In this document: positions 34,935 to 59,535 of the stretch, in pieces
Layout: every line of letters starts with the position of its first letter
Position numbering within the stretch: the stretch's first letter is position 1
Origin: Rhizodiscina lignyota
Lineage: Eukaryota
DNA length: 64,000 nt
Direction: 5' to 3'
Assembly: GCA_010015805.1 (NCBI GenBank)
Contig: ML978130.1
Coordinates: 1,054,001 to 1,118,000, forward strand
The notes under the pieces: model-generated
Told to the model about the DNA's origin: nothing
Database searches by the model: none
Seen by the model: only the letters and a program-made list of their open reading frames with translations
Made by a program: the position numbers and the translations under genes

Positions 34935-36190
34935 ATTGCCGTCCAATCGTTGGTCGAGCAGATCAATGGACAAGATGCACATTCGAATTAGATTGGCGTT
35001 ACGCTTGCGCTTTATTGCGCCCCGGTATTAATTATCACATATCAAAGAGGATATCAAAACAGAAGGAATGGAATGATTACCTGACTTTGGGAGCGTCCAT
35101 ACACAGTTCATCCTTCACATATCAATTCTGAGCTCTCGAAGATAGGACCGAACCTTGCCTCAGCTGAAGGTCATGGAGAAAGGAGCCTTAGATTTGAACT
35201 GTCCACCCCACACTCATGAATGACATAGTACAATCTGATCCCGGATGGAGCTCAAATGGTGTTCTGCAGATGAGCCTTTTTCTCTTATACCTAAGATTAA
35301 AAATATGGCCATATCAACGTGCTTCAACAGAAGCACAGAAGTTTGTGTCTGCAGCCTGTTTACTAATGTGCTCCGGACGAACTTGAATCTCATAAAGTCT
35401 TAAATTTTGCTTGAGATCGTTCCTATTTGTCTGCGGGAACAGGCATAATACTTCTACTGCGGCAACATCAAGGAACCCAATCGGAAATTATCCGAAAATT
35501 GCCAAGCTCGGGACTTGGCTCTAAGATTAGGTTTAGCGTCCCTGTACTTCACCGTTCCTGACGTCTCCTTAGTCCAAGCCCACTGTTTCTGTGGCTGATC
35601 ATGAACTTGGTATTACATCGCATACACAACCCTTAGATACGATATTGCGATGCGATATCCAGCTTGCCAACCACGCCTACGTCTCTCTGCTAAGTACAAT
35701 AGCTGAATACGAGCCCGTGAAGCAGAAGATCCGAGCATCCAAGCTTCCGATCTGCTAAAAACAGTCACATCATCCTGCCACCCCCCTCCCATCGCAACTT
35801 GGCGCCGGAAGTGGGAAAATGGCAAGAGTCGTGATGTCCTCTTTTCCCCACTCTACTTCACCCAGCAACGTTATTCCTTTATGGGCTCTTACGCCACTTG
35901 CTCATTTCTCGCATGTAGAGACATATTCGGAAGAGTCTTCGCAATCAGCCTGGGAATTCGGTGTCATGCAATGCCTCGAGCAGTATGTCAAGCACTGGAC
36001 TCTTCCGTATAAATGAAGAGTTATCCTGGTAAGCAAGAAGCGTTCTGTACAATATTGTTCAAATTTGAAGTCACATTGATCCTCAAACTGCACTATCTCT
36101 TTCTCGCTTTTCTTTCATCTCCCTTCTATTGCGAACCAGAGCGTGATAAGAGGGAAAGCGAATAGTTAGGTTTCGCCACTTTTGGCGAAG

Positions 36191-37880
36191 ATGAAGCTTA
36201 GAAACAATGCCCTCTCAACACCTGCCATTCTGTCAGTTACCTTAGGGAGCGTCCTCGCCGCGCCGCCCACCGAGAAGGAACTCTGCTCGGCCAATTCGGT
36301 CGAAGTGATCAATAATCATCCAGAGACCTGGCCGTACCAGTCATTCGTGAGTTCCGAACGCAATCCGCCTTGGCTGAGTATCAATCGAACCGGGGAGGCT
36401 CTTGCCCCAGGCTTCATTTTCTTAGCCCAGGATGCTGGGTTCAGTAACTCATCTATCAAAGAGCAATCTCCTCTGATTATGACGAGTGATGGGAACCTTG
36501 TGTGGGCCGGACCAAGAGTATCTGGAACTACAAACTTCCGCACTCAGACTCTCTTTGGCGAACCCGTTCTTACCTTCTGGGAAGGCTCTGGAGCGGCCGC
36601 AAACAGCCAAAATGCAGGCCACGGTTTCGGTAGCGTCAGGATATTCGACAAGTCATACAAGCAAATTTACAACGTCTGCCCTAAGTTGGACATCGTTCTA
36701 CCACCAGGTGCCACGGCGTCTTGCAAAGCCGACATCCACGAGTCCTATATCACAGAGCAGAATACGATCCTGGTGACAGCATACAATATCACAACGACCG
36801 ATCTGACGAGCGTTGGAGGCCCGAAGAAGGGTTACGTCTATGATTCCCTTGCGGTTGAGGTTGATGTCAAAACCGGAGAAGTACTCTGGACTTGGAGTCC
36901 GGTGGCTCACGTTCCGGTGAACGCCTCTCATCTGCCACTAGATGGAGCAGGTCAAAATACCTCGAATCCGTGGGACTGGTTCCATATGAACTCCATTCAG
37001 CCCTTTGAGGGCAATTACTTGATCAATAGCCGTAGTGCCTGGTCCACATATCTGGTCAAACCGTCCGGCGAGATCATCTGGCATATCAATGGTGAAGATG
37101 GTGGTGACTTTGGGAAGCTTCCAGATGGCGGACACTTCGTGAGAATATCTTTACTTTCTCTGATATGCATAAGTATCCTCCCAGCTAATTGGTTTGTAGT
37201 CTTGGCAGCATATGGCTCGCATCGAAAGAGAATCCTCCAACAAGGTCAAGCTGCACTACTTCGCAAACAACAACGACGAACCGGTGACAACTGTCCCATC
37301 GACCGGCGTCGAATTGTGTCTCACACTACCACCTGATCCATCAAACCCACCAGAACTGCTAAAAGATTTGAGCGACCCAAAGAATCCAGTCGTCGTCTAC
37401 GCCGAGGGTTCTTACACACCGCTCGAGAATGGCAACACACTCATGGGATATGGTGTCCAGCCCTTTATCAAAGAGTTCGGACCAAACCCGACCGGCGCAG
37501 ACGTACGCTGGTCTGCGCAATTTGGTTTTGACCCATATGGTGCTGGTAGCTATCGGGCGTACAAGAGCGAGTGGAGCGCAATACCGTCCACAAAGCCTTC
37601 ATTAGTAGCGAAGAAAATCACTGGCTCTGACAAATTGACATCCTGCGCCGGGTCCTCGAAATTGCGCGGTTACGTTAGCTGGAACGGTGCTACGGATGTA
37701 GAGGAATATAAAGTCTACGCAGGAGACAGCAAGACTGATTTGAAGGAGGTTGGAGAAGTGCTGAAGCGAGGATTTGAGACTGTATTTTCTCTTCCAGCGG
37801 GTGTAAAGTTTGTGTCGGTTGGTGCTGTGGTCAAGGGAAATTCAACCGCGACTATGTCAAAGGTAGTGGCGGTTGACTGA
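36191..37880 (+). CDS. Secreted arylsulfotransferase (ASST)-like beta-propeller protein; 1 intron (~37140-37199)
   Basis: Signal peptide; PLIMTSDGNLVW, PVLTFWEG, DIHE, WDWFHMNSI, YLINSR, NGNTLMGYG, YVSWNGAT, GFET. Confidence 0.88.
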
Positions 37881-42488: not shown

Positions 42489-43327
42489 CATCCCCACTGC
42501 CCCAATGTACAACCGAACTACCAACATACCCAGGTAACTTATCCTTCATGGAGTCCCACACGGACACGTAGCGACATCTTATAACCTCCGCCAGCAGTAG
42601 TTCCGCCGATATGCACGAAGCCGAAGTGGCTCAATGGGAAGAGGCGTGCGGCGATCAAGCTGAGAACCAGAGAAAACATAGTGCGCTATGCAATAGAACT
42701 TGACATCGACTCTCAAAGCGACGTAATCCTCGTAAAACAATAGGGCATTGTTCAAGCTAGTCGACGCTTGAGGTTCCATGTGAGATTACATTCGACACCA
42801 ACGTCGATGAAAGCGCCAGTGGGATATCTGTGAACAATAGTCAGAGACCTTTCAAGCGGCACCAATGATACGAAAAATTCATCAAGCCATCCGTTGGAAC
42901 GACCCTTTAACGACCATACAAAGGAGCAGGGCCTTTAACACCGGAAGATGGCGTTAGTCCTGCATCGGTCGTACTATGCCCGGGTGATGGATGAGCACGT
43001 GCTCTGTGATAAAGCTTCTCTTCCAAAGTTGCTGCCTTGTTCCCTTTATTTTTGCAGCTCATCACAAAAGCGCAGGCGAGAAAGCGCGACCCGCGCACTT
43101 CCTATGACAGTACTTCTTCGACCACTGCTCACAACGCTTGTTCAAATCATTCGGCAGCCTCTCACAACAACGCATCTTTCTTGCACTATTTAATTGCAAT
43201 CAAGAGTAAGAGTAGGTCTCCCTTCCTGACGCGCTGATGTTCCTCCTCCGCAACATCGCTGACTGATCATTCTAGAGTGTCGAACACTCATTGCTCTCGA
43301 AGCCGCAAGCTCGCGTCCCTTTCGAAA

Positions 43328-43969
43328 ATGTCGCATCATACCGACGGATCTCCGCTCGACAGTGCAAGTGAGGGTGCAGCCGACTCTAATTTTGACGGAG
43401 GCCCGGGTGAAACTCCAACCGATCATCACGACGACCTTCCGAGCGACGGCGCTAAATATGTAGCTGCGGCGATGTCATCCATCCAGGACGCTAGCGACAA
43501 AATCTTTTTCGAAGCGGAGGAGTTAAAGCTGTTTGATGAAGCAAAGAACTGGTGCAAAGCTCGCGACTCTCTGCTCGTCGCCGAGGTGCGTGAAGCTGTA
43601 CAGCTGCTCAGCATGATTGACACAGAGCAATGCCCGATTATCACCAGAGACATCTTGGGACAATTGCGAGATCTGACGCGAAAGTTCCGCGATCTTTCGC
43701 AGGTAGCAGAGGCCACTATCAAGGGAATAGAGACTCTTATGGCTCTCTCAGGGGTACGGGGAAGGATGGCTTTTGAGGAAACTTTCATCGAAGAGGAAGA
43801 AGCCGCCATTGAGACAGAGACAGACACTGAAAAGAGGGCAGAATGGGAGCAGATTATACAGAAGGTAAAGGCACATCGAGAGAAGCTAGAGAAGGATGGA
43901 CGTGAACTTACAGTGGTTTTGGAGCAGTGCATGAGAGATATCAGGGCGGCATTGAGAAGGGCAGCGTAA
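43328..43969 (+). CDS. Hypothetical helical protein
   Basis: 213-codon ORF from MSHHTDG with protein-like charged helical composition. Confidence 0.55.
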   Translation: MSHHTDGSPLDSASEGAADSNFDGGPGETPTDHHDDLPSDGAKYVAAAMSSIQDASDKIFFEAEELKLFDEAKNWCKARDSLLVAEVREAVQLLSMIDTEQCPIITRDILGQLRDLTRKFRDLSQVAEATIKGIETLMALSGVRGRMAFEETFIEEEEAAIETETDTEKRAEWEQIIQKVKAHREKLEKDGRELTVVLEQCMRDIRAALRRAA

Positions 43970-43976
43970 GAGGCGC

Positions 43977-44010
43977 CGGCACACCATGGTGAACGGCACA
44001 CCATGGTGAA
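43977..44010. repeat. Perfect 17-bp tandem duplication (CGGCACACCATGGTGAA x2), each unit containing the palindrome CACCATGGTG
   Basis: Read directly from sequence. Confidence 0.95.
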
Positions 44011-44399
44011 TTGCACATCTATTTTGTAGCCGTCTGAGTAGCGAGCTAGGTATTACTGCGAATTTATGATGGCATTGAGTGGGCGTCACATGCAGTACCG
44101 TTTTGAGGAGCTCAAACAAATGTATAATCAACGTCATGGAACTCACTCTCCTTACCCATCTCGAGGGTGACAAGAAGTTAACCACCTCTTGAATAATTAT
44201 GAAGCATAACCTCTATAACCACAAAGTGTGTAAGTTTTCAATGGGACGCTATTGTTGTATGCACTCCAAAGGATATAAACCTAAGCTTTCAGCGATAGTC
44301 ATGCTTACGTTGAAGTGCAAAAGCTGCTCGCCATTGGGTGTCACAGCTTGCCTGACGAGTAATTACTTCGTCACCCTTCTTACCATGTGGTATTTCGTA

Positions 44400-44495
44400 A
44401 TTACTTAGTAGCGCTGATTGGAAGTGAAGCCGTCTGAAACACTAACGGGCAGCTGTGAGGATGTATCTGAGGCTTGGAGGAGAACTTTATAGTAT
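44400..44495 (+). repeat. Left copy of a ~95-bp degenerate direct repeat (partner at 57001-57095)
   Basis: Manual alignment, e.g. GGGCAGCTGTGAGGATGTATCTGAGGCTTGGAGGAGAACTT vs GGGCAGTTGTGAGGATGTATCCGAGGCTTGGAGGAGAACTT. Confidence 0.92.
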
Positions 44496-44500
44496 ATGCA

Positions 44501-44575
44501 CGTGAACTTACGGTGGTTTTGCAGTAGTACATGAAAGATACCAGGACGGCATTAAGAAGGGTAGCGTATGGGGCG
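44501..44575 (+). repeat. Degenerate copy of the 3' end of the 43328-43969 gene (43901-43975)
   Basis: Ungapped manual alignment at exactly +600 bp, 11 mismatches in 75 nt. Confidence 0.92.
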
Positions 44576-45052
44576 AGGGCCGACCTGGTGGGTTGCACAC
44601 CTTGCTCAAGTCTGCACCGCTACAAGCTCGGGCTACTCTCCTTCCACTCAACTTCAGCACTTAATTCTGCTTAGCCCTGCTGAATATTATGTTAACTGTG
44701 CCCGAGGTACACGTCTACGATTGTTAGCTATACGGGCTCCACATTAGGGCGGTGGTCCTGAACCGGACTATCTATGTAATTTCGCCCACGCATGGACCCT
44801 CCACTCAAGAGCATATCCAGGGTGGTCGAAACCTAGCCTGCTGGGGAGTTTGCTGAAAGTGGTCCACCTGGGTGATTGTCTGAGATTCCTCTCCGAACCC
44901 ATACATCGTAGGATGAGCCTCATTTTGGGTTTGATACCCTCTAAGGCTTTTCAGCCACGATGATACTCCGATTTCGGGTCATGGCCAGTATATTCAGCCT
45001 GTCACCGAGCCAACCAGACGGATAATGCCAGACACCGTTAGTCTGCCGCTCC

Positions 45053-47106
45053 TCAGCCGAACAGGTACTGCCTCGTGGAGCTGATCCCGGATTTCTGGTC
45101 GATGAGAGAGCCCCACCAGCTGTCCGGGTCTGCCGCTGCCGCCCATACCTCTTCGAGGAGGCCAAGGGTGGTGAGGAACATGTCGTACCGCGTCTTGACG
45201 CCCCACCAGTTACAGTAGTCCCTGGCCTCTTCCCTCAGATACTCGTCGTCCGTCTCGCACGCGGCTAAGAAGACGGGTAGCAGGAGCTGCTTCTGAATCA
45301 TGACGCTCCGCCTGCACGACAACACGTTGTTGAGAGCCTTGCGCGCGAAGAGGCGGATGCGCGCCATAGAAGCCTCGCAGCGGCGCCACTTGAAGACGCG
45401 CTCAATGTAGACGAGCAGTGCAAACCGCCACGCCTGGGCGCAGTGGTAGAGGTCCTGGGCGTAGTGCGCTGCCTGGACAGGATCCAGGGCCCCGTCGTCA
45501 GGGATGCCAGCAGCGCCCGGCTGGGTAAATTCCACGTCCGGATCGTCGTACTGGGGTGCCCGCCACTCCTCGATGGCTTTCTCCACGGCTAGCACGGGGC
45601 CCATGTCGAAGGTGACGCAAGTCATGTGCGAGGCCAGCTCGAACTCGCGTGCGTAGGTTCCGAGCCGGAACATGTACCTGAAGAGCTCCTCAGGGCATCC
45701 CGAGATGTTGTAGAAGGTCGGAGCGTTGTTTGGGTTGAAGACGTTGCTGATCGTAGGGCCAGACAGGACGAACCCTTGACGAGTGGTGAGGCCAAGCGTG
45801 ACATCCCACCTAGATGTCGCATTGGTCAGTTGTGTTGAAAGGATACGGTTGTGTGGGAAGAAGACACACCAAACAAACATGTCGACCTGAGCCTGAATCC
45901 TTGGGCTCCTTTGGATTTTGAATGCCCCGAGAGCTTCGATGATCCTCTGCGCGCGCCTGAGGTGCGCAACCCAGGGACCTTGGGCTGAGGTAGCACACTT
46001 GGGCAGATGGTTAGCTGGAGTGGACTGGGGTAGCGAGTATTTCAACCAGCTCACATCTAAGGTCATCAATATCAACAATCCATTAAGCAAGTTTGTCCCA
46101 GAATGTGCGGATCCAAGGTAGCCGTCTAGTTCCTCGAGGAGCTGCACGGCTTTCCTCTTGTGCACCTTTGCTTCGGCGAGGCAGGAACCAGTCTCGCGAT
46201 GGATGTGCTTATACGACAAGGCCAGAATAGAGTGCCACAGAAGGGGCGAGCCTCTGCCGGTCTCAATATCATAGCGGAAAGGATTTGCTTCAAAGTCGTG
46301 CGTCAAAGGCCAGACGCAAAATTCCCGGTCATCTGCCCGGCAACGTTAGTGGCTTGCGCCTCGCTTTATCTCTCTGAGGTCATCAAGGCACTGGCGGGCT
46401 TACACTGGGCGAAGAGCCTATAAAAATTGTCGCTGATATTTACAGGTATTGAGCTATGATCGTCCAGTTTGGGGTCGATATCTCTCAAAATGCCTCCAGT
46501 TGAGTTGGGCGAGTCTTCCGACGATATATCTTCTATGATCGGATGGCCCTGATCTCCTGGAAGGTGCTCTTGGGACCTGTCTAGTGAATGTTCAGGAGCT
46601 GCCATACTGGTATGGCCTAGAGTAGGCGAAGTAGTCAGGTGGAACGGGGCGCCAAACAAAGGTAAGGGGTCGTTGAAGTCGAGAGCAGGCCCCAAGGCAT
46701 CCGTGGCCATTGTCAGACCGGTCGATGCCGGCCAGTCCAGGAGTGACTCCAGAATGTCAGTGGGAGGGTGTACTACAGTGGTCGGCATAATTTGGGGCTC
46801 ATCGGTGAAAGATGTGGCTATTGGTGTTCTCGTGGTTGTGACGTCCTCATTCTGGAATGCAGCGCTAGGTGCAGCGCAGCCGTCGTTTCCCTCAGGACTG
46901 GAGCTTGCGTGTGATTCGGTGTGCACAGTAGAGACCAGCTGCATCAGCCTCCGCATATCGTTTGTCGCTGCCGCCGCCTTCACCACAGACATGGGCTGCG
47001 GCGACGTCGACTCGGCATGGCGGGTGGTAGACGGCGCACATCGGCGTCGCTTTCTGCTCGGACCACCGACAAACTTGAACGTGCGGGGCAACTTGGGCTG
47101 GGACAT
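45053..47106 (-). CDS. Fungal-specific transcription factor (Fungal_trans_2-like), no intact Zn cluster visible; multi-exon
   Basis: NPFR, SPLLWHSILALS, WVAHLRRA, W(W)DVT, ISGCPEELF, LLLPVFLAACE. Basic N-terminus FKFVGGPSRKRRR. Confidence 0.85.
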
Positions 47107-48385
47107 GTTAACGTCAACAAGAAGAATGAGAGGAGAGCACGGTCAGTGAGATACAGTGCAATCGAGCAAGGAACGTACCCCACATAAGAAAAATCCTCCT
47201 ATCGCACCATGGTCTGGGCTTCTACGCCATTCCCGGGTGAGCGGGACGACCGACGAAGCTCCGCACAGGGGTTTGCCAGGTTATGCTAATAGGGGCGTAC
47301 AGCCTTGTTCGCAACTGGGGAACTATATCAGATACAAGCACGCAGAACAATCACGGCGCGTGAAATACTATAAGCTTCACCACGAGCAAAATCAGGATGA
47401 GAACAGTGGTGCCAAGCTTCACGCGGCGTTGACCAGCTTGCAAAGCTCCATCTTGCTTATGACGGTCTAAGTGCTGTTCGCCTCGATCTCACGCGCCACA
47501 TTCTCAGTGCAGTGCCGGGTGTGGTTTGACGATGATGCTGTAGCTGACTCTTCAAGCACTGTCGACTCGTTCGATCTCAGCTGTTGGTTGTACTGCGAGG
47601 ACGGCCACCCTGCAACAGCGGTCGAGTCCCTTTCGTGCTTTCGAATTAATTGTTTGGTTGGTAAGTATCGGAGGAGCAGAGAAAGCGTCTGTATAGTTCG
47701 ACTAGGACGAGCAGAAGAGATAGAGTGGCAGTTGAATAGCAAACGACCTGGATGTGTAGACAAAGTAGATACGTCGTCTCAGTGCCTCGTCGCTCCCTAC
47801 AAAGTCACCTACACTTGGCCACAATATAGACCACCACTTTGCCCCATTCCAGCCTCATTCCAACTCTACATTTCCTGATTTGAGATATTCAATTGTGGGG
47901 TAGAAATTTCTACCCTCCCTGAGTCAGGACAGCACCTCCTGTCTGGCTTATCTTCGGTGGCGGGCACCGCTAGTACAGAAAAGGCGATTGGACTTTGCCG
48001 CTATGCCCAATCAGGAGAAATGGCACATAGAGCGCCGGGGTCAATCCAACCACCTGCTAATCTCATTTTGGAGATATTGACACCCTGCCATCCTCACTTT
48101 ATACACTACAACCGGTGTGTCCTACCCTCCTAGCGTTCGATGTCAGGCGTCTAGGCGTGCACCAGCTGGCATGATGTCAACGCTACCAGAGCGGAGCGCC
48201 GAGCATGCTATTCCTCGCAAAGAACACTACCAAGTAGGGCAGTCTACCAAGCTGCCTTTACCTTGAATTGCTCTATCTAGTGCGTACTTCATCAGTGAGA
48301 TTACTCCGCGAAACATGCCCTCCAGCCAGTATGTCTCGTTGCATTTCGCCCTATCAAATTTGCTGCAACAACGCACACGTCCACG

Positions 48386-49682
48386 ATGGCTTCGTTGAGC
48401 TCGAACGACAGTATCGTCATTGTTGGGTAAGTTCATATGTTCGCAGCGGCTGGCAAAACACCTAACGATTGGTCGCTCAGGGCCGGTATCATTGGTCTCA
48501 ATGTTGCGTTGGTCCTCTCGGAGAGAGGCTACGGCCAGTCGATTGCTGTGGTGGCTGAGCATTTTCCAGGCGACACGAGTCTGAATTACACGTCACCATG
48601 GTGAGAAATGTGCAGATCCGAGCCGAGCGCCTTGCACGATCTGTATGCTTACTTGGAGCAGGGCCGGCTGCAACTTCTCGGCAATCTCCGGCACAGATGC
48701 CACTGCATTGCGTTGGGACCGTCTGGGATATGATCATCTTTCGAGGCTTGCGTCGGTGCGCTCTGAGGAAGCATATGTGCATTGGACTCCGTCGATTGAG
48801 CTTTGGGATGAGGATGTTCCTCGTGATAAGATACAACACATGTCAGAATATCTGAGAGATGTAAGGGCCTGCATAATCCTGCGCGGCGCTAGGTGTCGCT
48901 GACATACCACAGTTCCGAATCTTGCCTGAAGCTGAGCTTCCGAAGGGAGTGAAATTCGCTGTCTCCTTTACCACGCTGACCGTGAATGCCCCCGAGCACA
49001 TCAAGTATCTGCATCGAAGACTTCAGGACCAGTACGGTGTGCGGTTTGTGCGCAAAAGGCTCCCCAGCATCCAGTCAGCGTACGCGAGCCCGTCCACCAA
49101 GATTGTCTTCAACTGCACGGGAATTGCCTCTGGCACCCTCCCTGGCGTCGAGGACCCCAAGTGCTACCCTACCCGAGGCCAGGTGGTGTTGGTAAAGGCC
49201 CCTCATATCCAAACCAACATGATGCGTCACGGCGCGGACTACGAAACATACGTGATCCCTCGCCCGGGATCCAATGGGAACGTCATCTTGGGTGGGTACA
49301 TGCAAAAGAGAGTCAGGTAATTCTCTGGCAGTACTGATAATTTCCATAAATCCTCGCTAACGTGATTCTCAGCGACGGTTCTACCTACGCTTTCGAAGTT
49401 GAGTCCATTTTAGCCCGCACGCGTGACCTGAGCCTGGAGATTCGCCAGCAGGAGCCTGAGTTATTGGGCACCTTTGCCGGCCTCCGCCCTTCACGTGAAG
49501 GAGGTGCGCGTGTGGAGAGAGATGAGGTCGTTATAGACGGGCAGAAATGCGCACTGGTTCACAACTATGGTGCGGGTGGCACGGGTTTTCAAGCTGGCTA
49601 TGGCATGGCCCTCGAATCCGTGGCGATAGTCGAAGATGTGCTGCACCAAATTCAGAACAGCATGCCTCGAGCGAACCTCTGA
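48386..49682 (+). CDS. D-amino acid oxidase family flavoprotein with PTS1-like C-terminus (-ANL); multi-exon
   Basis: IVIVG/AGIIGL, YTSPW/AG, FNCTG, YPTRGQVVLV, TYVIPR, GLRPSR, HNYGAGGTGFQAGYG. Confidence 0.93.
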
Positions 49683-50188
49683 AAATGCGATTGTTCGTAT
49701 TGCAATTTTAAGCATTCAGTGTATTAGTAAACTGCAACACATTGAAGCGATCAGTTTTAGTCAAGTTGCAGTACTACAGTAAGATGCTCACGGCTCATGC
49801 TATTAGTTCAGACCCGTATATACTCTTAGTACAGAAGCTCAAGCATAGTGCACTGGCCAACCAGCTCCCTTCACAAGACCTAGTACTGCGGCGACTACTG
49901 CCCTAGTGTCATGGTTAGAGTCAATATACGGGGCTCCCGTCATTACTGCGTTCCTCTGCATTGCCAAATTAGGAATTACCGGATTAAGGGAAACTGCAAC
50001 GTGGAAGTTCAATTGCTAGGTAGATAGTCCTTTCCTCTTGAGTATACTTGGCGTGAGATAGGTATGCTTATTAGACGCTGCAGGTCGCTGGCTGAATTGA
50101 CAGGCAACGAACAGACTCTGCTCTAACCACTCGTTGTCCTCAAAGCCATTCCACTCGGCGGCCCATCCGAAGAAGACGGCCAACCAGC

Positions 50189-51211
50189 ATGGCTACCATG
50201 GACCAAGTCTTCGCTGGTTACCACAGCCGACAGGCTGTTCTGGAGGCCAGTTTCGACAAGAATCTTTTTGCTAGCGGCATTGCCTGGGTCGAGGGGGAGT
50301 TCGTGCCTCTCCACGAAGCTCGCATCCCGCTGCTAGACCAGGGCTTCATGCACAGCGATTTGACCTACGACGTACCATCTGTCTGGGACGGCCGCTTTTT
50401 CCGGCTCGACGATCATATGACTAGACTACAGGCCAGTTGTGAGAAGATGCGGCTGCAACTTCCTCTGCCGCGTGAAGAGGTCGAGAGGATCCTGGTCGAG
50501 ATGGTTGCCAAAAGTGGCATTCGTGACGCCTTCGTCGAGCTAATTGTGACCCGCGGTTTGAAGGGCGTGCGTGGCCATACCCCCGGCGAGGTCTTCAAGA
50601 ACAACCTTTACATGTTCATCGAACCTTACGTGTGGGTGATGGAGCCCGAAATCCAGCCCACTGGGGGCAAGGCCGTTGTGGCGCGGACAGTGCGGCGCAT
50701 CTCTCCAGGGTCTATCGACCCGACCGTGAAGAACCTCCAATGGGGCGATCTCACGCGTGGTCTCTTCGAGGCTGCCGACCGAGGCGCCGTATATCCATTC
50801 CTAACAGACGGTGACGCGAATCTCACCGAGGGGTCGGGGTTCAACATCGTTCTGATTAAGGACGGCGTCCTGTACACACCCGATCGTGGTGTTTTGCAGG
50901 GTGTCACCCGCAAGAGTGTTATCGATGTCGCCAAGTCCTGCGGCTTCGTAGTGCGGATCGAGTACGTGCCGACAGAGATGGCCTACAGCTGCGATGAGAT
51001 TCTCATGTGTACTACCGCCGGCGGGATTATGCCCATCACTGAGCTCGACGGCAGACCTGTAGGGGACGGCAAGGTCGGTCCCATCACAAAGAAGATCTGG
51101 GATGGCTACTGGGCCATGCACTACGATCCAACCTACAGTTTCGAGATTGACTACGCAACCAGTACTGCAAAGAGAGTGAACGGCGCAAAGAGCTTGAACG
51201 GTACACACTAG
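50189..51211 (+). CDS. (R)-selective amine:pyruvate transaminase (PLP fold type IV), intronless
   Basis: [50 protein letters not shown]. These match the (R)-ATA signature; the sequence is closely colinear with the Aspergillus terreus (R)-omega-transaminase as recalled. Confidence 0.95.
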
Positions 51212-51897
51212 AGTGCTGTGGTCGGATGTAGATCGCAGCCATGCAGTTTCAATAATTTTGTCAGGAGGTGATCAGTGTGCCTTAGCGTGTATATAGCCTT
51301 GCACTTCTCCTGGGGAGCTTCCTCCCTCAATCAACTCACATTGATCATTCGTGCTCCGACAGCCTTTCCACATCTGCCATTATTACGGATTGTGTTTAGC
51401 TAAATATTTAGATATAATAAGGAAGGACAAGGGCAAGTAAGGAAGACATGTGGCCTGACGGACTGGATGTAAAGTCATCTTCACTAAGCTACACAACATG
51501 CCAAGTATCGTGAGAAATGCGATCATAAACAGATCAATTCGATTAGCTGTGTGCAGTCCCTTTAGATTGATTGATAACGATACTCCAATCAGCACAATCC
51601 CTTGGCAATCAAACGTTTGGTTGGATTATTGACAGGTCACTGACTATATTCTCCACATGCGCGCTGGGCCCCTCGATAAAAGATCTCAGACTCTTCCATG
51701 GCAGTTTGCCGTCCACACTAAGAAACTTGTAGAAGTGCTCTTAGGACTCGGTGAAAGAGGGGCATCTCTATTATCAACCCAACAGCGTTGCTATTCAATC
51801 ATGGTCTTCGTATGGCGCTATCTTGCCCCTTGGAATGAGTAGATGTGCTACATTCCCGATTGCCAACCCTCTCCAACCAGGTGTTGCATATATGGCC

Positions 51898-53582
51898 TCA
51901 AGATCTCTTCTCACTCTGAGTCTCCACAATAGGCTGCTCTACTTGGAACGCGCTCCCTTCAATCGCCTCGATACTTTCTCCCATGTTAGTATCCTTGAGC
52001 CAGTATTTAATTATTGGTAGAACGAAGACCGGCCCAGCGGCCACAAACTAAACATTGTCAGTGAGAATATATCACTGTAGCTCAAGGGGTAGCGCTCACC
52101 GCCCATGAGGAGCCAAACATAAACTCTTTGGAATACCCGTTTAGGTTGAGCGAAAAAGCGCAAATTTGACACAGGGCGTTAAGAAGACGAAACATGGACG
52201 CATAGACGGAGAGCTTTGCTAACTGTTAGTAGATGCCGCTTCATGTGGGATTTGTGTGTAAATATGGACGACTTACCTCCTCGGGTCGGTTGCTCAGTGC
52301 TCCAATGAACCAATAAGCGTAGCAGTTGTACGTAGCATCTGTGAAGCCATACAAGACGTACACAGCACACGCTCCTGGATAGCCAGAATCGAATACGTCC
52401 ACACGTTCTTCCTCGCTCAAGCCGAACACGGTCTTCTTCATTGTGAAGTATCCAGCAATCCAAACGGCGTTGATGGCGACGAAGACATAGATGACGGCAA
52501 CGAATGCCCTCTTGCGGCGACCAAAGGGCAGCTTGTCTGTAAAGAGGTTGAGAATCCATGCGGAAGGGATCTGAACTGCGCCGGAGATGAAGGTATTGAG
52601 GGCTCGGCCGCGGACGGTGAAATAGACGCCGTTGAAGTCGTTGCTCTGGTAGATGTTATAGTAGTTAACAGCCCAACACATTGGCCAGAAGAACAAAATC
52701 CACCAGTTTCTCTTGCAGACCTCCCACGATGTGACGAGCTCCTCCAGGAAGGTTTTCTTGTTTACCTCCAGCATAACACGCGAACCGTCCTCTCGTATGA
52801 TCTTCTGCCAAGGATAAAGAACCAATCCTAAGCATGAGCCGATCAGCATAAGGATGAAGAGTCCAATATACGTGCCGTCACCGACACGGCTATTGTTGTT
52901 GGTGCCCGCATTCCAGTTCTGCGCCACGGGGATGGAGGCTCCGATGACCACACCGAACTGGAAGATGGACCAGAAGATGGACACATAGAGCCCCTTTTTG
53001 TTTTCGCTCGCGAACGAAGTAATCGCTGTTCCCTCGGCGCACCAGAGCAATGCGGCAGAGAACCCGCACCAGCAGCCTCCAAAGATGACGAATGGGACGT
53101 TTCCGGTATGGTTGAAGCACCACAAGCTGGCTGCGTAGCCCGCATATCCGATACCGCCGGCACACAAAGTAGCCCGCAGTCCGAAATAGTTGAGACAGGC
53201 AGGAGCAACAAAACAGAAGGCCGAGAACACGCTATAGAGCGCTATGTTGGATATGTCGGACAGCCAGGCGCTTTGCTGGCCGGCACCTCCGATGAACGTA
53301 ATGACATTGAACATGCCCACTGTCATGAAGAGGACGCATCCAAGCATTATAGCCTGCACTCGAGGGTGGCCATACGCCCAAATCTTGAATCCTCTGATGT
53401 GATACGGTTTTGGGAGCTGCAAGCGCTTCATGTTAGCCTCGTATGTTTATGACAAGCTTGAGGAGAACATCTACCTCGTAGGCCTGGGGAATATCCACTG
53501 CAGCTTCATAGCCATTTTCGGCATCGTTCTTGTTGCTAGGATTCTCGATGACTTGTGTCAGGGGATTATCAACTTTCGCCAT
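51898..53582 (-). CDS. UNC-93-like (DUF895-type) MFS transporter; 4 exons
   Basis: FMTVGMFNVITFIGGAG, NIALYSVF, LLWCAEG, IFWSIFQFG, IIREDGSRV, YFTVRGRALN. GT-AG introns traced to the stop at 51898. Confidence 0.9.
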
Positions 53583-53815
53583 TGTGTCCGATCTTTGAAA
53601 TATCAATGTGTATCTCTGGAGACGACGGAGTTGTGGGGTTTAATAGCGATGTGAAGTTTAATATAACGGCCGGTCGCGCAGTAACCTGCTAGTCGCCTTT
53701 GTGTAGTGTCTCTGATATCTAGACATTTGGCGTTGTTCAGACATGGCAGTCGCTTAATGTGGAGGAGAGACTACAATACGCCATGGATGAAAGAAATCGC
53801 CTGATTAGGCAGTTA

Positions 53816-54360
53816 AGATACTTAAGTTCATCCCGGTTTCCCGGGCGAGAGGATGATATAGAGATGATTAGATTGCCTAACTTCCTGGAGTAGACGTAGG
53901 AAGTCAAGGCGAGGATAAGGTGTTTGCGGGGGACGCTTTGAGGACAGATAAGGCGATATCTTATTCCAGTTTAGAGGAGTGGGCCGCATAGAACGCTCGA
54001 CTGGAGATGAATCTCTTAGTGGACTAAACTAACCACATGTCGAATTCCCTCTTTCGGAAGGCCCGTCGAGCGCCTTCGACGTTTGGGCTCCAAGAGAAAA
54101 ACGCCATATGCGGTTAGAATCTAGTCCATTACGGTTAGTTAGTAATAGGGTATTTTGTTATCCCCGAGATGCGAACATTTTGCCCTGTTAGGAGCTAGAG
54201 TGCTAATGCCTAAATGATAATAGTGGCACTAACCCCGCAAATTGTCATTACACATGCGAATTACTATTCGTCCTTAGCTTCAACTACATGCCCAACAGAC
54301 CCATTTCCTTCACGCTCCGCAACATGCATCAAATATATTGAAACTTTCCTTCCCTTATCT
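53816..54360. promoter_or_regulatory. Clustered GATA motifs in the divergent MFS/DMFase promoter (possible AreA/NIT2 nitrogen-regulation sites)
   Basis: GATAAG 53914-53919, AGATAAG 53946-53952, GATATC 53955-53960, CTTATCT 54354-54360. Confidence 0.35.
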
Positions 54361-54444
54361 CGAAAATGTTACCATTTCTTCCCAATAAGTGGTCAGACTT
54401 GGATTGTTGAGCACTTTAGATTACTTGTTTTGCGTACTTCATAG

Positions 54445-56841
54445 ATGGTGGCAATCGACGCCGAAAAAGGTGGCTATCTACCAGAGATCATTGGGTATGC
54501 CGAACCATGGATAGCGGCCCCTGGTGATTCGGTTGCAATCAAAGTAAGATGCGCATCTTTGTTCCTATGAGCTCCCAGTCTCGGCCGGTAACGCAGAGCC
54601 CGTTCATTCCTGAAAGATAGAAGAGCGATCAATAATATGTCCAGTGGAAATGGCCGCACAGGATATGCTCAGGCTAACACATATGCGTAGATATCATGTA
54701 CGGAGCCGGAGTATAAGTATCGGACCGTTCGCTTGATCCAGGGTATCGATCTCGAGCACTCCCCAGAGAAGGCCGAAGAAGAAGTAAAGGATATTCCTCG
54801 AGGTCAACGGCAAGGCAGATTTCAAACGGCTCAACCGGGATCATATGGATATGTTCCTAATTGGGGGCCACCGATTGCAGCAGAGGGTCTTCAAGTTTCT
54901 TTCTATATGCAACCGTGGTTGGTGGACTGCTCGCACGTACAAACTCTCGTTTCCACCCTGGATTCGACCGCACATACTGGATTCTCCATTGCCTTGAACC
55001 ATCAAGGTTCGCTTGATATCAGCGTGGGAACTGGGCACAAGATTGAAGTTATCAGCACTGGGCTTAAACACCAGGAGAAGACCTGGTCAAAAGTCAAGCT
55101 CGTATTCAACGGTCGGTCGGTCCGGTTGAGCTTGACGCACATACCTTTCAGAGTCGAGCCCGTACCTCCTCCTGCGGCATCCGAATGGCAGTTGAATGGT
55201 GAAGCGCTATTGTTCAGGCTTGGACCTCTTCTCGTTGCAGCAAGCCAGAGCCATGCTGCCGACAACAGTCGAGGTGGCCTGAGATCGCATGTGACAGATT
55301 TCTTCAACGGTCGCATTGACCGCCTAACGTTAAAGTCATGCGGCCAAAAACCCTTGACCCTCGCCAAATATGACTTCTCACTGGACATGTCGAGTGACCG
55401 GATCGTCGACACCTCTGGACGCGGTTACGATGGTGTTCTGATTAACGCGCCGACTCGTGCTGTTAAGGGTCATGATTGGGACGGTTCAGAGTGTGACTGG
55501 ACACGGGCGAAGTCTGGCTACGGCGCCATACATTTTCACGACGATGACCTGGATGATGCGGAATGGGACACAGACTTCGTCATCACAATTCCGTCCAGTG
55601 CCCGCTCTGGCGCCTATGCCGTCGAGGTAGAGGCAGTCAACGGCCGAGATAGGGATTCGATCACCTTCTTCGTGCGGCCGACGCACTGGTCATCAGACAA
55701 CTCCAAAAAAGTATGTCTCGTCTTTTCGACATTCACGTATCTGGCGTATGCCAATGAGCGCATGTACGACACATCTCGCCGGAACGACGCCGATCTCGGG
55801 CCGGGATTTGACATCAACAAGGCCCTGAAGAGCGCTGAGTTTTACAAGATGCGCCGGCGCGGTGACCTGGGCTTATCTTGTTATGATCGCCACAACGATG
55901 GCTCTGGCGTTTGCTTCTCTTCGTCAAAGCGGCCGATCCTTAATGTCCGTCCCGGCTACGTGATGTGGGCATTCTCTCGTCCGCGCGAGTTCTCCGCTGA
56001 TCTCATGATGCTTGGGTTCCTGGAGCGCGAGGGCATCCCGTATGAGATCCTGACCGATCATGACTTGCACGTCCGAGGGGCCGGCGCCCTTCAATGCTTC
56101 AATACCGTCATCACAGGCTGCCATCCCGAATACCCTACTCTAGAGTCGTACAGTGCCTATAGCGCCTTTGCCAGAGGTGGGGGGAGCCTCATGTATCTGG
56201 GCGGAAACGGCTTTTACTGGGTAAGTGCCCTCAATGCTGCCCGTCCGCATCGTTTAGAGGTGCGTCGAGGCGACACCGGAGTCCGGCCTTACGGTCTTCC
56301 GGGTGGTGAGCACGTCAACGGCCTCGACGGACAGCGAGGCGGTCTGTGGAGGTCCCGCGGCATGAGTTGCAACACGTTGTTCGGAGTTGGCTTCTGCGCC
56401 CAAGGAACCGGCCCGGGCGTACCTTATAGGCGGACTGAAGTGTCCAGGGACCCCAAACTGTCCTGGATGTTCACGGGCGTAGATGGGGATCTTATCGGGG
56501 AGCATGGCTTTGGGGGCGGCGCGTCGGGCGATGAGATAGATCGCTATGACATGGAGAACGGGAGCCCCGAGGGTGCGTTGACGCTCGCCACGAGCACCGG
56601 CCATAGCGACGACTTCGGCATCGCCATCGAGGACCTGAGCTATCCCGCGCTGAACACGCTCGGGACCCAAACGAATCTGATTCGTAGTGATGTGGTTTAT
56701 TATGTTGGCGCGGGTGGTGGTGCGGTGTTCAGCGTTGGCAGTATTAATTGGTACTGCTCGTTGGCCTGGGACGGCTACAATAACAACGTTGCAAGGTTAA
56801 CAGGCAATGTTATCAAAGGCTTCTTAGCGGGGAAGCGATAA
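54445..56841 (+). CDS. N,N-dimethylformamidase large (beta) subunit family amidohydrolase; 2 exons (intron 54544-54690)
   Basis: IIGYAEPW..PGD, laminin-G-like segment (FFNGRID), YGAIHFHDDDLDDAEW, TFTYLAYANE, GLSCYDRHNDGSGV, HPEY, YLGGNGFYW, GGASGDEID, FSVGSI. Confidence 0.9.
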
Positions 56842-57000
56842 GAATAGTTAGAAACAGATTCATCAACTTGCCTTGGCCCTTGAGTTCAAATCGGGACTTA
56901 TAGCAGTCTCATCTACTTTAATGTGCAAGAAACTGCCCGCTCTTAGGCATTGCAGGTGGCCCTATGACCAACTACTTTGGTACACATGTGATGGTTGACG

Positions 57001-57095
57001 ATTTCTTAGTAGTGCCGATTGGCAGCGAAGCGGTCCGAAGCACATAGGGCAGTTGTGAGGATGTATCCGAGGCTTGGAGGAGAACTTCACAGCAT
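57001..57095 (+). repeat. Right copy of the degenerate direct repeat (partner at 44400-44495)
   Basis: Manual alignment, roughly 80-85% identity. Confidence 0.92.
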
Positions 57096-57687
57096 TTAAG
57101 GGAACCAAAGGCGAACAGTAGCTGTGGAGATCCTCAAAACGATACATGTGTTGAGAAACGGTGGCCGCAGCGGGATCGGCTGTTCCCATGCTTGAAGTGC
57201 AGCGAGAGCTTGAGGCTGATAGTTGAGACGACGTATTGCTTCGATTGGGGAGGGGGGCCGCTCGTGACTCTCACATGGCAGCGCATGGATCGCCGCAGCG
57301 CCCGCGCGCCCACGCTATCTCCGCTGCGATTGGGCGAGCGTGACTTCACATGCTCGTCGGCCAGAGCGAGAGTCGCGCGCATCCCACCCCCCCAAACTCT
57401 CTCCAAAGGATCCCACGCTCAACCCCGAACGCCAACCCACCGACCTCGCACGCCCGTGAGACAACCGCCGATCCTTCGTCGTCAGCGACACCCCGTCCGC
57501 ATCCCTCTTCCTCCATCATCGACCTTTGCGACACCTTCTCCTGTCGCATGTAGACCGCACACGCGCTGCGGACCCATCGCAGCGCACTATTCGACGTCAC
57601 ACGCACCGTCTCCTTCGCTACCAGTCGCGGCTCAAACGGCGCTTGCACGCGATAAATCTGCTCCAACGTCGATAAAAATCCATCCAG

Positions 57688-59535
57688 ATGGCGTCGCTGC
57701 AGCAAGAGCGCGCACCACCACCCTCATACAGCTCGCATGACCCCGAGTCGCTCGAGCTGCCGTCCGTACCACAGCACGAAATTGGCAGTCCTAGCAGCAA
57801 TGCGACTTCGGTGACCCTGCCGCACTTGAAGTCCTTGGGCTTGCCAGAGCACAACAGTTACACGCCGAGTCCGCCAGAGTGGCCAGACGCCTCTGCGCCG
57901 TCGTTTTATGGGGGTTACAACTTCTCCACCGCCTTTCCGCCTGCTCCTCATACCGCGCCTCGAAGTGATGCCGGAATTGGGAGCCCAATGGAAGTGTCGA
58001 GCGTCATGAGCCTCGATGAGCAGAACCATCGCGCATCCTCCGTCTCAATGGATGATCCCGACGTTCGCATGGCAGCAGAAGCTCTGTCTGGACTCGGAAA
58101 CCCCGACTTCGCACGATCACCAACATCCTCTTATCGCAGCACTACTATATCTGTGCATCCATCGACCGCTTCTACCAGTACCACTCTTCGTCAGACTCCG
58201 CAAGCTCAATCGCAAGAACCGGAACCCCTCCTTACACTGCTTACAACGAGTCACCCCTGGCTCGGCGCAACGGTCAATGGCTCGCTATACGCCTATGGCG
58301 GCGCGAAACACTACTCTCCTCGCTTTGTTCGAGGTACAGCGGAGTTTATGGAAAGGAATATCGGTTCACCAATGGTCAATACTGTTGGCTTTGTGTCGCG
58401 CCAGACTGGTGTCGACGGGCGCATTCGACGTTACCTTGGCGACCGGCGATTATCTGATGATGGCAAGGATGCAAATGGTAGCAAGAGGCGACGAGTTATG
58501 GTTGGTGTGACCAGTCCAAAGCAGAAAGAGGAAGACATCGAGGCTCAGACAAACGGCGATGTTGCAATGACCAGTCCGAGGAGCGATGCTCAGCGCATGA
58601 GGACAGGAAGTCAGAGCAGCATGTCTATTGTCGAAAGTCTACCCGCATACGATGACAATCGCTCTCCTCATTATGAGGAACTATCTCCTCTCCTGAGGGC
58701 CGAGAAGCAGCAGGAGGGGGAGCCATCTTCGTACGAACAACAACGGCAACGGGTGGAATCCACTTGGCATGGCCAACTCCTCATGACTACTTCAGGACTC
58801 GGTGTCGCCTTGTCAGATTCTTCTCTGCGCAGTCTGAAGTATACACTTTCTGTACTCGGACGTACGACCGACGAGATTGGCAACTTGATGCGTGCTCTCA
58901 AGATTCTTCTAAATGAGTACCAGCAATCAGAGTCATCATCACAATCAAATGGCCAAAATGAGAAAGCCCCGCTTGCTGGACCTCAATATCAGCAGGACCA
59001 GAGACAAGTGTCTGCAGAGAACGAAGAGCGCTCGCGAAGACTCGCCGAGCGTATTAAATCATACTCGAATACACTCTGGAGCCTCCTCCGTGAAACAGTC
59101 GCTACCATCTCCCAATATACCGGTTCTGCGCTTCCCGACAATGCAGCGTCCCTCGTTCGCCGCCAACTCATGTCCTTGCCTCAGCGCTGGCGCACAGCTG
59201 CATCCTTTGGATCCAGTAATCCTAGCGTGAGCTCGGGAGACCCGTCAAGTTCAGATTCTCCGAACCAAGCTGTCATTGCTGCGAATCGTATTCTCAACTT
59301 CGGTCAAGAGAGTTTGGACATGTTGAGTCAAGTCAGCCTCGTCGTTAGTGGAACGATTAGGAGCGCAGAGCAGTGGCTTGATAGTATGGGTCGCAGGCGG
59401 GAGAATGAGGAGGGTTCCTCTAATGTGAGCAACGATGGTGCCGCACAGGTCAACGAAATTGCGCTTGGGCAAGGAAGTATGATCGTCGCTGGCCAGCGTT
59501 GGCATCTCGATTCTAAGGACACTCCCCAGCGATAA
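57688..59535 (+). CDS. Opi1-domain transcriptional regulator (ccg-8-like)
   Basis: SMDDPDVRMAAEALSGL, ESLPAYDDNRSPHY, TTSGLGVALSDSSLRSLKY, SQYTGSALPDNAASLVRRQLMSLPQRW. Confidence 0.88.
   Translation: MASLQQERAPPPSYSSHDPESLELPSVPQHEIGSPSSNATSVTLPHLKSLGLPEHNSYTPSPPEWPDASAPSFYGGYNFSTAFPPAPHTAPRSDAGIGSPMEVSSVMSLDEQNHRASSVSMDDPDVRMAAEALSGLGNPDFARSPTSSYRSTTISVHPSTASTSTTLRQTPQAQSQEPEPLLTLLTTSHPWLGATVNGSLYAYGGAKHYSPRFVRGTAEFMERNIGSPMVNTVGFVSRQTGVDGRIRRYLGDRRLSDDGKDANGSKRRRVMVGVTSPKQKEEDIEAQTNGDVAMTSPRSDAQRMRTGSQSSMSIVESLPAYDDNRSPHYEELSPLLRAEKQQEGEPSSYEQQRQRVESTWHGQLLMTTSGLGVALSDSSLRSLKYTLSVLGRTTDEIGNLMRALKILLNEYQQSESSSQSNGQNEKAPLAGPQYQQDQRQVSAENEERSRRLAERIKSYSNTLWSLLRETVATISQYTGSALPDNAASLVRRQLMSLPQRWRTAASFGSSNPSVSSGDPSSSDSPNQAVIAANRILNFGQESLDMLSQVSLVVSGTIRSAEQWLDSMGRRRENEEGSSNVSNDGAAQVNEIALGQGSMIVAGQRWHLDSKDTPQR

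Follow-up and report, generated by a model that had tools for sequence, protein, structure and literature searches.

Fungal (R)-selective amine transaminases (ATAs) are workhorses of industrial chiral-amine synthesis. In the chemistry of the close relatives of the enzyme described here, an amino group is shifted from an (R)-configured donor to pyruvate, making D-alanine, and an organism that runs such an enzyme needs a sink for D-alanine. Fungal D-amino acid oxidases (DAAOs) turn D-alanine into pyruvate by oxidation, with release of ammonium and H2O2, and in vitro cascades that combine a transaminase with a D-amino acid oxidase recycle pyruvate in biocatalysis. Fungal catabolic gene clusters, such as those for quinate, proline and nicotinate utilisation, bring together enzymes, a permease and a fungal-specific regulator, have divergent promoters and are patchily distributed. 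Fungal (R)-ATAs have been studied as biocatalysts, with genomic context and native role undiscussed in the accessible parts of three reports (PMC8048526, PMC5131300 and PMC4255305). A search of largely open-access literature, in its main texts, found no native role for an (R)-ATA, no clustering of ATA and DAAO genes and no fungal gene resembling dimethylformamidase (DMFase) in such a context; nor did the largely open-access literature yield a mention of the locus tags of the cluster genes that are the subject of this work. These genes lie in a stretch of 64,000 nucleotides from Rhizodiscina lignyota (contig ML978130.1, positions 1,054,001 to 1,118,000), hereafter the window. An earlier note on this DNA had held that fungal (R)-ATAs have no assigned native substrate, which agrees with the literature search.

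The window consists of fungal DNA with short introns, R. lignyota being a member of the Dothideomycetes (NCBI taxonomy). At 45053-56841 it carries genes for a regulator-like protein, a DAAO-family oxidase (DAO), an ATA, an UNC-93-like transporter of the major facilitator superfamily (MFS) and a DMFase-like amidohydrolase (amidase). We propose that they represent a conserved fungal catabolic cluster that obtains nitrogen from an N-acylated compound with an (R)- or D-configured amino-bearing carbon. Taken as a whole, this scheme is in our estimate as apt to be wrong as right, while our confidence that ATA, oxidase and amidase share one pathway is clearly higher. The neighbourhood is more than a product of chance, because the enzyme genes adjoin each other again in many other fungal genomes. 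The partnership makes the native role of the (R)-ATAs experimentally approachable.

The five genes and their products

Pfam searches were run on the stop-to-stop open reading frames (ORFs) of 43000-59000 (15 ORFs, 6 of them with matches), and intron-aware models were built from reading frames and canonical GT..AG introns of 52-147 nt with CTRAY branch sites. Both place five intact, contiguous genes at 45053-56841 in the order and orientation that the earlier note had given, and the gene models likewise bear out its two divergent pairs (regulator-like gene/DAO and MFS/amidase) with the ATA in tandem behind DAO. Its end coordinates, 45053 and 56841, are the stop codons of the regulator-like gene and the amidase gene, respectively. 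The features are as follows.

47106..46404, 46332..46055, 45997..45870, 45809..45053, minus strand: regulator-like gene, 4 exons, 621 aa, Fungal_trans_2
47107..48385: divergent intergenic region between the regulator-like gene and DAO, 1279 bp, bounded by gene models
48386..48426, 48481..48600, 48662..48860, 48913..49316, 49373..49682, plus strand: DAO gene, 5 exons, 357 aa
50189..51211, plus strand: ATA gene, single ORF, 340 aa, Aminotran_4
53582..53475, 53416..52277, 52222..52100, 52047..51898, minus strand: UNC-93-like MFS gene, 4 exons, 506 aa
53583..54444: divergent intergenic region between the MFS and amidase genes, 862 bp, bounded by gene models
54445..54543, 54691..56841, plus strand: amidase gene, 2 exons, 749 aa, DMFA2_C

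The amidase model is identical, letter for letter, to an annotated database protein of 749 aa (P0003), and residues 1-357 of the DAO model align to residues 1-357 of three annotated proteins (P0243, P0244 and P0245) at ~81% identity. The second intron of the MFS gene (52223-52276) ends in a CAG acceptor 3 nt past CTAAC, picked by frame and not from RNA; the alternative TAG acceptor 4 nt further would break the frame. For the ATA, the public annotation (P0123; 99% identity over 96% of the query) has 329 aa and ends in ...EIDYIAAMQFQ, implying a 3' intron, and the uninterrupted ORF (51150-51211 region) runs on to ...[22 protein letters not shown], giving 340 aa.

The ATA is a true orthologue of the solved fungal (R)-ATAs, consistent with its earlier designation as an (R)-selective fold-IV transaminase. 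Its ORF (50096-51211, plus strand) matches Aminotran_4 (PF01063, 7.3e-41), and its matches in the Protein Data Bank (PDB) include 8zm7 (6.2e-191), the A. terreus enzyme AT-omegaTA (4ce5, 9.1e-180) and the Nectria enzyme (4cmd, 1.6e-177). The segment TVKNLQWGD is invariant in the alignment with characterised enzymes, and its Lys is the residue that we take to be the catalytic lysine. Two motifs have been defined for (R)-ATAs, namely, [HR]-x4-Y-x-[VT]-x-[HSAPT] and [YF]-V-[EAQN] (PMC8048526), and the window ATA has both of them, the first as [10 protein letters not shown] and the second as FVE. Its active-site loop, [10 protein letters not shown], contains RGH, that is, an RxH motif. RxH at position 107 is the carboxylate trap of D-amino-acid transaminases and is excluded by the original rule of Hohne et al. 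(PMC8048526), so that the window ATA fails this rule. Nevertheless, ES-omegaTA of Exophiala sideris, which has an RxH loop, is strictly (R)-selective with D-alanine as the donor; it aminates ketones to (R)-amines, and its structure shows the carboxylate trap to be disrupted (PMC8048526). Because ES-omegaTA is an (R)-ATA with RxH, the motif does not disqualify the window ATA but marks a subfamily; indeed, the two enzymes have the loop VRGHTPGE(V/T)F in common and are 80% identical. ES-omegaTA is poor on standard ketones, and its small pocket favours ethyl or CF3 over methyl (PMC8048526), a profile that would fit a specialised native substrate.

The amidase was also correctly placed among DMFase-like amidohydrolases: its ORF (54691-56841, plus strand) matches DMFA2_C (PF20254, 4.7e-94), and its active site is intact. 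In the Paracoccus DMFase, iron is held by Y399, Y440 and E521 (a 2-Tyr-1-Glu site), and H519, N547 and E657 are essential or inactivating if mutated (PMC7686228, accessible parts). The equivalents of all six residues (Y399, Y440, H519, E521, N547 and E657) are identical in the window amidase. Among solved structures, the nearest is that of an N-acetyl-(R)-beta-phenylalanine acylase (8huy, 3.4e-101), to which the C-terminal two thirds align and which, going by its PDB title, frees an (R)-configured amine from an N-acetyl precursor; the large subunit of the Paracoccus DMFase (6lvb) follows at 2.6e-97 over its full length (residues 35-754). F693, which constricts the DMFase pocket, is replaced by Tyr in the window amidase and by His in the acylase. 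On these matches the window amidase appears equally distant from acylase and DMFase, and its substrate would not be transferable from either. No evidence appears to favour formamides, the closest solved relative being an acylase.

The oxidase had been claimed to be a D-amino acid oxidase, and its membership in the family of DAAOs and D-aspartate oxidases (DDOs) holds: PF01266 matches exon 4 (3e-08 at 48877-49320, plus strand) and exon 5 (0.0011 at 49350-49682, plus strand), the N-terminus reads IVIVGAGIIG (GxGxxG), SPWAG and GLRPxR segments are present, and the C-terminus is ...PRANL. Exon 4 finds its nearest solved structure in Rhodotorula DAAO (1c0i, 6.7e-19), and all 17 PDB matches of this exon are DAAOs or DDOs. 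The oxidase is probably peroxisomal, as suggested by the C-terminal -ANL, which resembles a type 1 peroxisomal targeting signal and aligns with -SNL of human DDO. Three related annotations, from Paramyrothecium, Boeremia and Fusarium coicis, present fusions of an Abhydrolase_3 esterase/lipase domain with a DAO domain (P0276, P0347 and, by precomputed Pfam only, P0296); they are either real fusions or merged neighbouring genes, and either way they put a different hydrolase beside a DAO-type oxidase in other fungi.

The transporter is UNC-93-like, as the earlier note had it: its ORF (52241-53446, minus strand) matches UNC-93 (PF05978, 6.8e-14) and MFS_1 (PF07690, 4.7e-4), and the nearest Atlas clusters are UNC-93/MFS with a score of 0.98. 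The regulator-like protein has the middle-homology domain Fungal_trans_2 (PF11951, 1.9e-24, on ORF 45053-46345, minus strand) and keeps a basic SRKRRR stretch near its N-terminus. No Pfam Zn_clus match was obtained on the ORF of its first exon. A frameshifted zinc cluster hidden in that exon was considered and rejected, the spacing fitting no frame.

Gene neighbourhoods in other genomes and around the locus

The amidase search gave 1885 relatives at E <= 1e-20 among 7998 scored, the ATA search 2954 at E <= 1e-40 among 6095 and the search with oxidase exon 4 235 at E <= 1e-10 among 587; in each case the best 120 were examined, and gene distances between named proteins were taken from positional locus tags and consecutive accessions. 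ATA and amidase genes lie 1-5 positions apart in at least 13 species of 9 genera and 3 classes, presumably Dothideomycetes, Eurotiomycetes and Sordariomycetes, with a spacing that varies by lineage:

Rhizodiscina lignyota: KAF2096214 and KAF2096216, 2 apart
Talaromyces atroroseus: UA08_01694 and UA08_01695, 1 apart
Neocucurbitaria sp. VM-36: tags 102210 and 102230, 2 apart
Hypoxylon texense, H. cercidicola, H. sp. NC1633 and H. rubiginosum: by accessions or tags, 2 apart each
Fonsecaea nubica and F. pedrosoi: by tags, 3 apart each
Rhinocladiella mackenziei: by tags, 3 apart
Capronia coronata: by tags, 1 apart
Gnomoniopsis sp.: by tags, 5 apart
Diaporthe amygdali: two assemblies, 2 and 1 apart

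Moreover, DAO and ATA genes lie 1-4 positions apart in at least 9 species among the matches listed. DAO adjoins ATA directly in D. amygdali, Neocucurbitaria cava, Colletotrichum truncatum (two annotation sets) and Fusarium nematophilum, and the two are 3-4 positions apart in the four Hypoxylon species; in D. amygdali, ATA, DAO and amidase are consecutive (KAJ0103973, 74 and 75). C. truncatum, F. nematophilum and N. cava have the DAO-ATA pair with no amidase among the matches listed. Conversely, DAO and amidase are 2-3 positions apart in 12 of the 13 Trichoderma records that have both, the exception, judged by accession, being T. lentiforme. An over-long Trichoderma amidase model (P0401, 966 aa) has an extra tail that matches no Pfam family and no window protein. 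Co-conservation in other fungi, which the earlier note had named as a test of its reading, thus holds for the three enzymes: their genes (ATA, DAO and amidase) are co-localised in many Ascomycota, though not always in one order. No ATA partner is among the matches listed for the amidases of Xylogone, Clonostachys, Niveomyces, Exophiala viscosa, Venturia and Sporothrix.

The RxH loop occurs in 43 of the best 120 of 2954 ATA homologues, and in the same set all 11 named amidase-linked ATAs have the RxH, or VRGH..PG, loop. Named ATAs that are neither loop-bearing nor amidase-linked include those of A. terreus, Thermomyces stellatus, E. xenobiotica, C. truncatum and F. nematophilum and a second copy in R. 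mackenziei (Z518_10447). In a FastTree phylogeny of the best 120 of 2954 homologues (SH-like supports, with a midpoint root for drawing only), the amidase-linked ATAs fall into two clades, of 36 rows (support 99) and 15 rows (support 93), and none is found in the 58-row clade of the classical biocatalysts, to which A. terreus, Thermomyces and E. xenobiotica belong. The loop label needs at least three changes on the tree and is therefore not strictly of single origin. As judged from these sequences, the amidase-linked ATAs are a distinct subfamily with the loop VRGHTPGE, typified by ES-omegaTA.

A scan of metagenomes for ATA genes gave 159 pattern matches and 115 relatives, of which 80 loci were kept and searched by tblastn with the five window models; 41 of the 80 have at least 3.5 kb on one side, and Pfam was run on 10 low-GC and 16 high-GC loci, the others being covered by tblastn only. 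Oxidase matches were obtained in six of the 80 loci (L001, L005, L006, L007, L013 and L063), regulator matches in four (L002, L005, L006 and L063) and an MFS match in one (L001). Nine distinct loci are fungal-like (L001, L002, L004, L005, L006 with its equivalents L007 and L008, L010 with L011 and L012, L013, L055 and L063); in five of these a DAAO-family gene lies no more than 5 kb from the ATA, four have a Fungal_trans_2 gene, and L004, L010 and L055 have none of the partner genes beside the ATA. L001 has the order DAO-ATA-MFS, its MFS being 73% identical to that of the window and placed and oriented alike; in L013, DAO comes after the ATA. L005, L006 and L063 have a common gene set, in which the ATA is accompanied by a PF01266 oxidase (divergent), a regulator (convergent) and an amino-acid permease. 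The best solved relative of the L005 oxidase is Rasamsonia DAAO (7ct4, 1.9e-87), and it is a paralogue other than the window DAO; a DAAO-family gene also adjoins the ATA in ATA clades that have no amidase. The pairing of ATA and DAAO thus recurs with two oxidase lineages. A SNZ/Pdx1 PLP-synthase gene adjoins the DAAO-ATA pair in L006 (6391-7425, minus strand), which could reflect cofactor supply or coincidence. L002 has a 69% identical regulator orthologue near the ATA. Zn2Cys6 is present in the ATA-adjacent regulator homologues of L006 (12547-13407) and L063 (12770-13534), and the regulator-like proteins of the window and of L005 are both without it. Co-conservation of the whole cluster is accordingly good for the three enzymes, but weak for the transporter (one locus) and for the regulator (four related loci).

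Could the genes not form one pathway at all, and be together by inherited synteny or as a horizontally passed block of DNA? The ATA and amidase of T. atroroseus are 86% and 83% identical to those of the window, as against 72-76% and 71-74% to those of same-class Chaetothyriales, and classes are intermixed in clade A of the ATA tree. These cross-class identities and mixed classes would fit the transfer of a block and suggest that horizontal transfer of the cluster has occurred, old paralogy with loss being an alternative. Furthermore, several of the species counted are congeners (four Hypoxylon, two Fonsecaea and many Trichoderma). However, gene order and spacing differ by lineage, with 0, 1 or 2 genes, or DAO, between ATA and amidase, and DAO on either side of the ATA; because of this variation a passive block is unlikely. 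In addition, pairs recombine (ATA and DAO without a listed amidase, DAO and amidase without a listed ATA), another DAAO paralogue has been recruited beside other ATA clades, and a producer of D-alanine beside a consumer of D-alanine is a specific biochemical fit. The pairwise identities of ATA and amidase also co-vary across 10 genomes (r = 0.88), which counts in favour of the proposed cluster even though shared ancestry alone could yield it. We consider such hitch-hiking highly improbable.

The metagenome loci bear also on a biosynthetic or self-protection cluster, in which the ATA would aminate a precursor to an (R)-amine metabolite and acylation and deacylation would control its activity or export. 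In L002, a Mac/hexapeptide acetyltransferase (2062-3009, minus strand) lies between the ATA and the regulator orthologue, and in L004 an aldo-keto reductase and an MFS gene adjoin the ATA; an MFS transporter and a pathway-specific regulator are also typical of fungal secondary-metabolite clusters. On the other hand, no polyketide synthase, non-ribosomal peptide synthetase, terpene cyclase or other backbone enzyme was found in the window or in the Pfam-annotated ATA loci, an oxidase that destroys D-alanine would be counter-productive beside an enzyme that needs D-alanine as its donor, and hydrolase, transaminase, oxidase, transporter and regulator are the usual make-up of a catabolic cluster. 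We hold a biosynthetic role to be hardly probable at all. The acetyltransferase of L002, set beside the deacylase-like enzyme of the window cluster, may point to N-acetylated substrates.

Many of the other metagenome loci have a high GC content and bacterial genes. High-GC loci have ATAs with 43-66% identity to the window ATA, and in the GC-rich, bacterial-looking loci L018, L022, L026, L036 and L047, as well as L009, L014 and L057, the identity is 60-69%. Two bacterial-like loci (L009 and L014), whose context is an Opp-type ABC transporter and EamA, have ATAs 70-74% identical to other fungal ATAs; identities as high as these across kingdoms suggest that genes have passed between bacteria and fungi. 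In the 16 annotated bacterial-like loci (95 ORFs), PF01266 is adjacent to the ATA only in L014 and nearby in L071, and five of the 16 (L018, L022, L026, L036 and L047) combine SBP_bac_5, a class-III aminotransferase and the ATA, three of them with an E1 dehydrogenase gene upstream. Bacterial amidase homologues were collected as one locus from a single-protein scan and 79 loci kept of 599 relatives from an alignment scan, and are 32-41% identical to the window amidase by tblastn. Since these loci are without DAAO or (R)-ATA neighbours, the three-enzyme cluster looks like a fungal assembly.

Around the five genes, the flanks are unrelated to the cluster: coiled-coil ORFs, a PQ-loop gene and an arylsulfotransferase upstream, and Opi1 and an ankyrin protein downstream. 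The arylsulfotransferase (ASST) family gene (36170-37880, plus strand) consists of two ORFs, split probably by an intron or a frame change. Further away, ~25-30 kb upstream, an AA_permease_2 fragment (5.4e-16 at 16041-16790, minus strand) and a PALP-family PLP enzyme (4.1e-75 at 19233-20291, minus strand) are probably unrelated to the cluster; AA_permease_2 is also the type of transporter that adjoins the ATA in L005, L006 and L063.

Substrate and chemistry of the proposed pathway

The compound entering the proposed pathway would be an N-acylated amine, beta-amino acid or D-amino acid. The UNC-93-like transporter would import it (step 1), and the DMFase-like Fe(III) amidohydrolase, with its intact catalytic residues, would presumably strip the acyl group (step 2). 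The ES-omegaTA-type ATA would then transfer the amino group of the deacylated compound to pyruvate, with D-alanine and a ketone or keto acid as products (step 3), and the DAAO-family oxidase would turn D-alanine into pyruvate, NH4+ and H2O2 (step 4). Pyruvate and D-alanine would thereby act as a catalytic shuttle, and the sum of the steps would equal the action of an oxidase on (R)-amino compounds. The Fungal_trans_2 protein is a likely regulator of the pathway, possibly without binding DNA itself. Substrate, direction of flux, acceptance of D-alanine, transport, regulation and peroxisomal location are inferred. We favour the D-alanine/pyruvate shuttle because a DAAO recurs beside the ATA, with two oxidase paralogues and in variable gene order; and the supply of the amine by the amidase is plausible, because the iron site is intact and the closest solved relative is an (R)-specific acylase.

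Several observations weigh against this scheme. The oxidase may prefer an acidic substrate: exon 5 has human D-aspartate oxidase as its best match (4.1e-09), aligned to the C-terminus (PRANL versus PKSNL), several DAO homologues among the matches listed are automatically named D-aspartate oxidase, and in one alignment the Arg of NMMRHG in DAO falls on the Arg of human DDO (HFIRDG), which we take to be the residue that binds the side-chain carboxylate. In another alignment, the Met of DAO aligns with the Met of Rhodotorula DAAO and the Arg lies two residues later; on such alignments either a neutral or an acidic D-amino acid (D-Ala or D-Asp) may be the preferred substrate. With regard to the amidase, the large subunit of Paracoccus DMFase is inactive without its small subunit (PMC7686228), and the spaces between the five genes show no additional small gene, although no search aimed at the DMFase small subunit was made. 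As to regulation, the Zn2Cys6 pattern CX2CX6C...CX2CX6-9C is absent from the six frames of 43000-58000, so that of the transcription factor proposed earlier the Fungal_trans_2 domain stands but a DNA-binding domain is not recognisable. The three upstream regions have no common word of 8 or more bases, and the four 7-mers that they have in common are frequent in the remaining window too. Linkage is also incomplete. For the RxH ATAs of T. islandicus, T. rugulosus, N. cava and E. sideris, the matches listed include no amidase partner. An amidase match is absent from all 80 metagenome ATA loci, most of which are of other clades, bacterial-like or short; just L001 and L002 are at least 80% identical to the window ATA, and L001 stops ~880 nt past the start of the MFS gene, too early for an amidase gene, of which no exon can be seen, so this null result says little either way. 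None of the 80 bacterial amidase loci has a DAO, MFS or regulator match, and the two with a fold-IV enzyme (L117 and L099) lack the (R)-ATA motifs. Finally, no Trichoderma ATA is among the best 120 of 2954 homologues, and the product of the Trichoderma amidase may feed the oxidase directly. The linkage of DAO and amidase in Trichoderma without a listed ATA implies that a serial three-step pathway is not obligatory. Of the reading put forward in the earlier note, the enzyme families therefore hold, and the synteny that it proposed to check holds for the three enzymes; a formamide as substrate finds no support, and the serial route is not obligatory.

The Trichoderma records lead to a different reading, in which derivatives of D-amino acids, such as N-acyl-D-alpha-amino acids, are what the cluster breaks down. 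The amidase would be an analogue of D-aminoacylases, the oxidase would act directly, and the ATA would be a parallel D-amino-acid:pyruvate transaminase, funnelling into D-alanine those D-amino acids, and not amines, that are poor substrates of the oxidase. Apart from the 12 of 13 Trichoderma records with DAO and amidase 2-3 apart and no ATA among the matches listed, this is consistent with the carboxylate-trap motif RxH of the cluster-type ATAs (PMC8048526), with the amino-acid permease in the ATA clusters of L005, L006 and L063, and with the fact that (R) equals D for most amino acids. However, ES-omegaTA, with the same loop, makes (R)-amines from ketones and has its trap disrupted in the structure (PMC8048526), and the window ATA has both (R)-ATA motifs; the solved relatives of the amidase take a beta-amino acid derivative and formamides, not N-acyl alpha-amino acids; and the Trichoderma gene between oxidase and amidase might yet prove to be an ATA. 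On balance we regard the D-amino acid reading as possible but rather unlikely.

A more specific form of the catabolic cluster proposed here can also be envisaged. The ES-omegaTA-type subfamily (loop VRGHTPGE) would be specialised for (R)-beta-amino acids, e.g. (R)-beta-phenylalanine, fungal (R)-ATAs in general would open a D-alanine/pyruvate shuttle that replaces an (R)-amine oxidase, and the cluster would have spread between classes by horizontal transfer. The amidase would free (R)-beta-amino acids from N-acetyl precursors, like its acylase relative; their carboxymethyl group would fill the enlarged small pocket of the ATA and engage its RxH residues; and the resulting beta-keto acid would decarboxylate spontaneously, pulling the reaction, while the oxidase burns D-alanine. 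In all its parts together this form is improbable.

If the proposed cluster operates as outlined, candidate native substrates of (R)-ATAs can be named, namely, N-acyl (R)-amines, beta-amino acids and D-amino acids, and the odd substrate profile of the ES-omegaTA subfamily may be explained by its native role. For deracemisation or the conversion of amides into ketones, the locus would moreover supply a naturally occurring cascade of three mutually matched enzymes. It also places DMFase/PF20254, a family that is poorly understood, in a fungal setting, the best 120 of 1885 relatives of the window amidase being fungal or unnamed.

Compared with described systems, the components of the cluster are familiar to different degrees. 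The solved fungal (R)-ATAs of A. terreus (4ce5), Nectria (4cmd) and A. fumigatus (4chi), together with 8zm7, are fold-IV enzymes like the window ATA (E 1e-157 to 1e-191), and the window DAO shares the PF01266 family with the DAAOs of Rhodotorula (1c0i) and Rasamsonia (7ct4) and with D-aspartate oxidases (6rkf and 9vpf). By contrast, the Paracoccus DMFase (6lvb) and the Burkholderia-type acylase (8huy) share PF20254 with the window amidase in a distant relationship (E ~1e-97 to 1e-101), and bacterial amidase homologues, unlike the fungal cluster, have no ATA or DAAO neighbours in the 80 loci. The biocatalytic cascade of ATA and oxidase follows the same logic as the cluster, in that the (R)-ATA makes D-alanine and the oxidase restores pyruvate; unlike that cascade, the fungal pairing is genome-encoded, comes with an upstream amidase as well as transporter and regulator genes, and would be presumed to operate in vivo. 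In its make-up the window cluster is of the quinate/proline/nicotinate type, from which it differs by its enzyme set, its chemistry and a regulator without Zn2Cys6. What appears to be new, therefore, is the set of enzymes and its logic, the fungal catabolic gene cluster being known as a kind.

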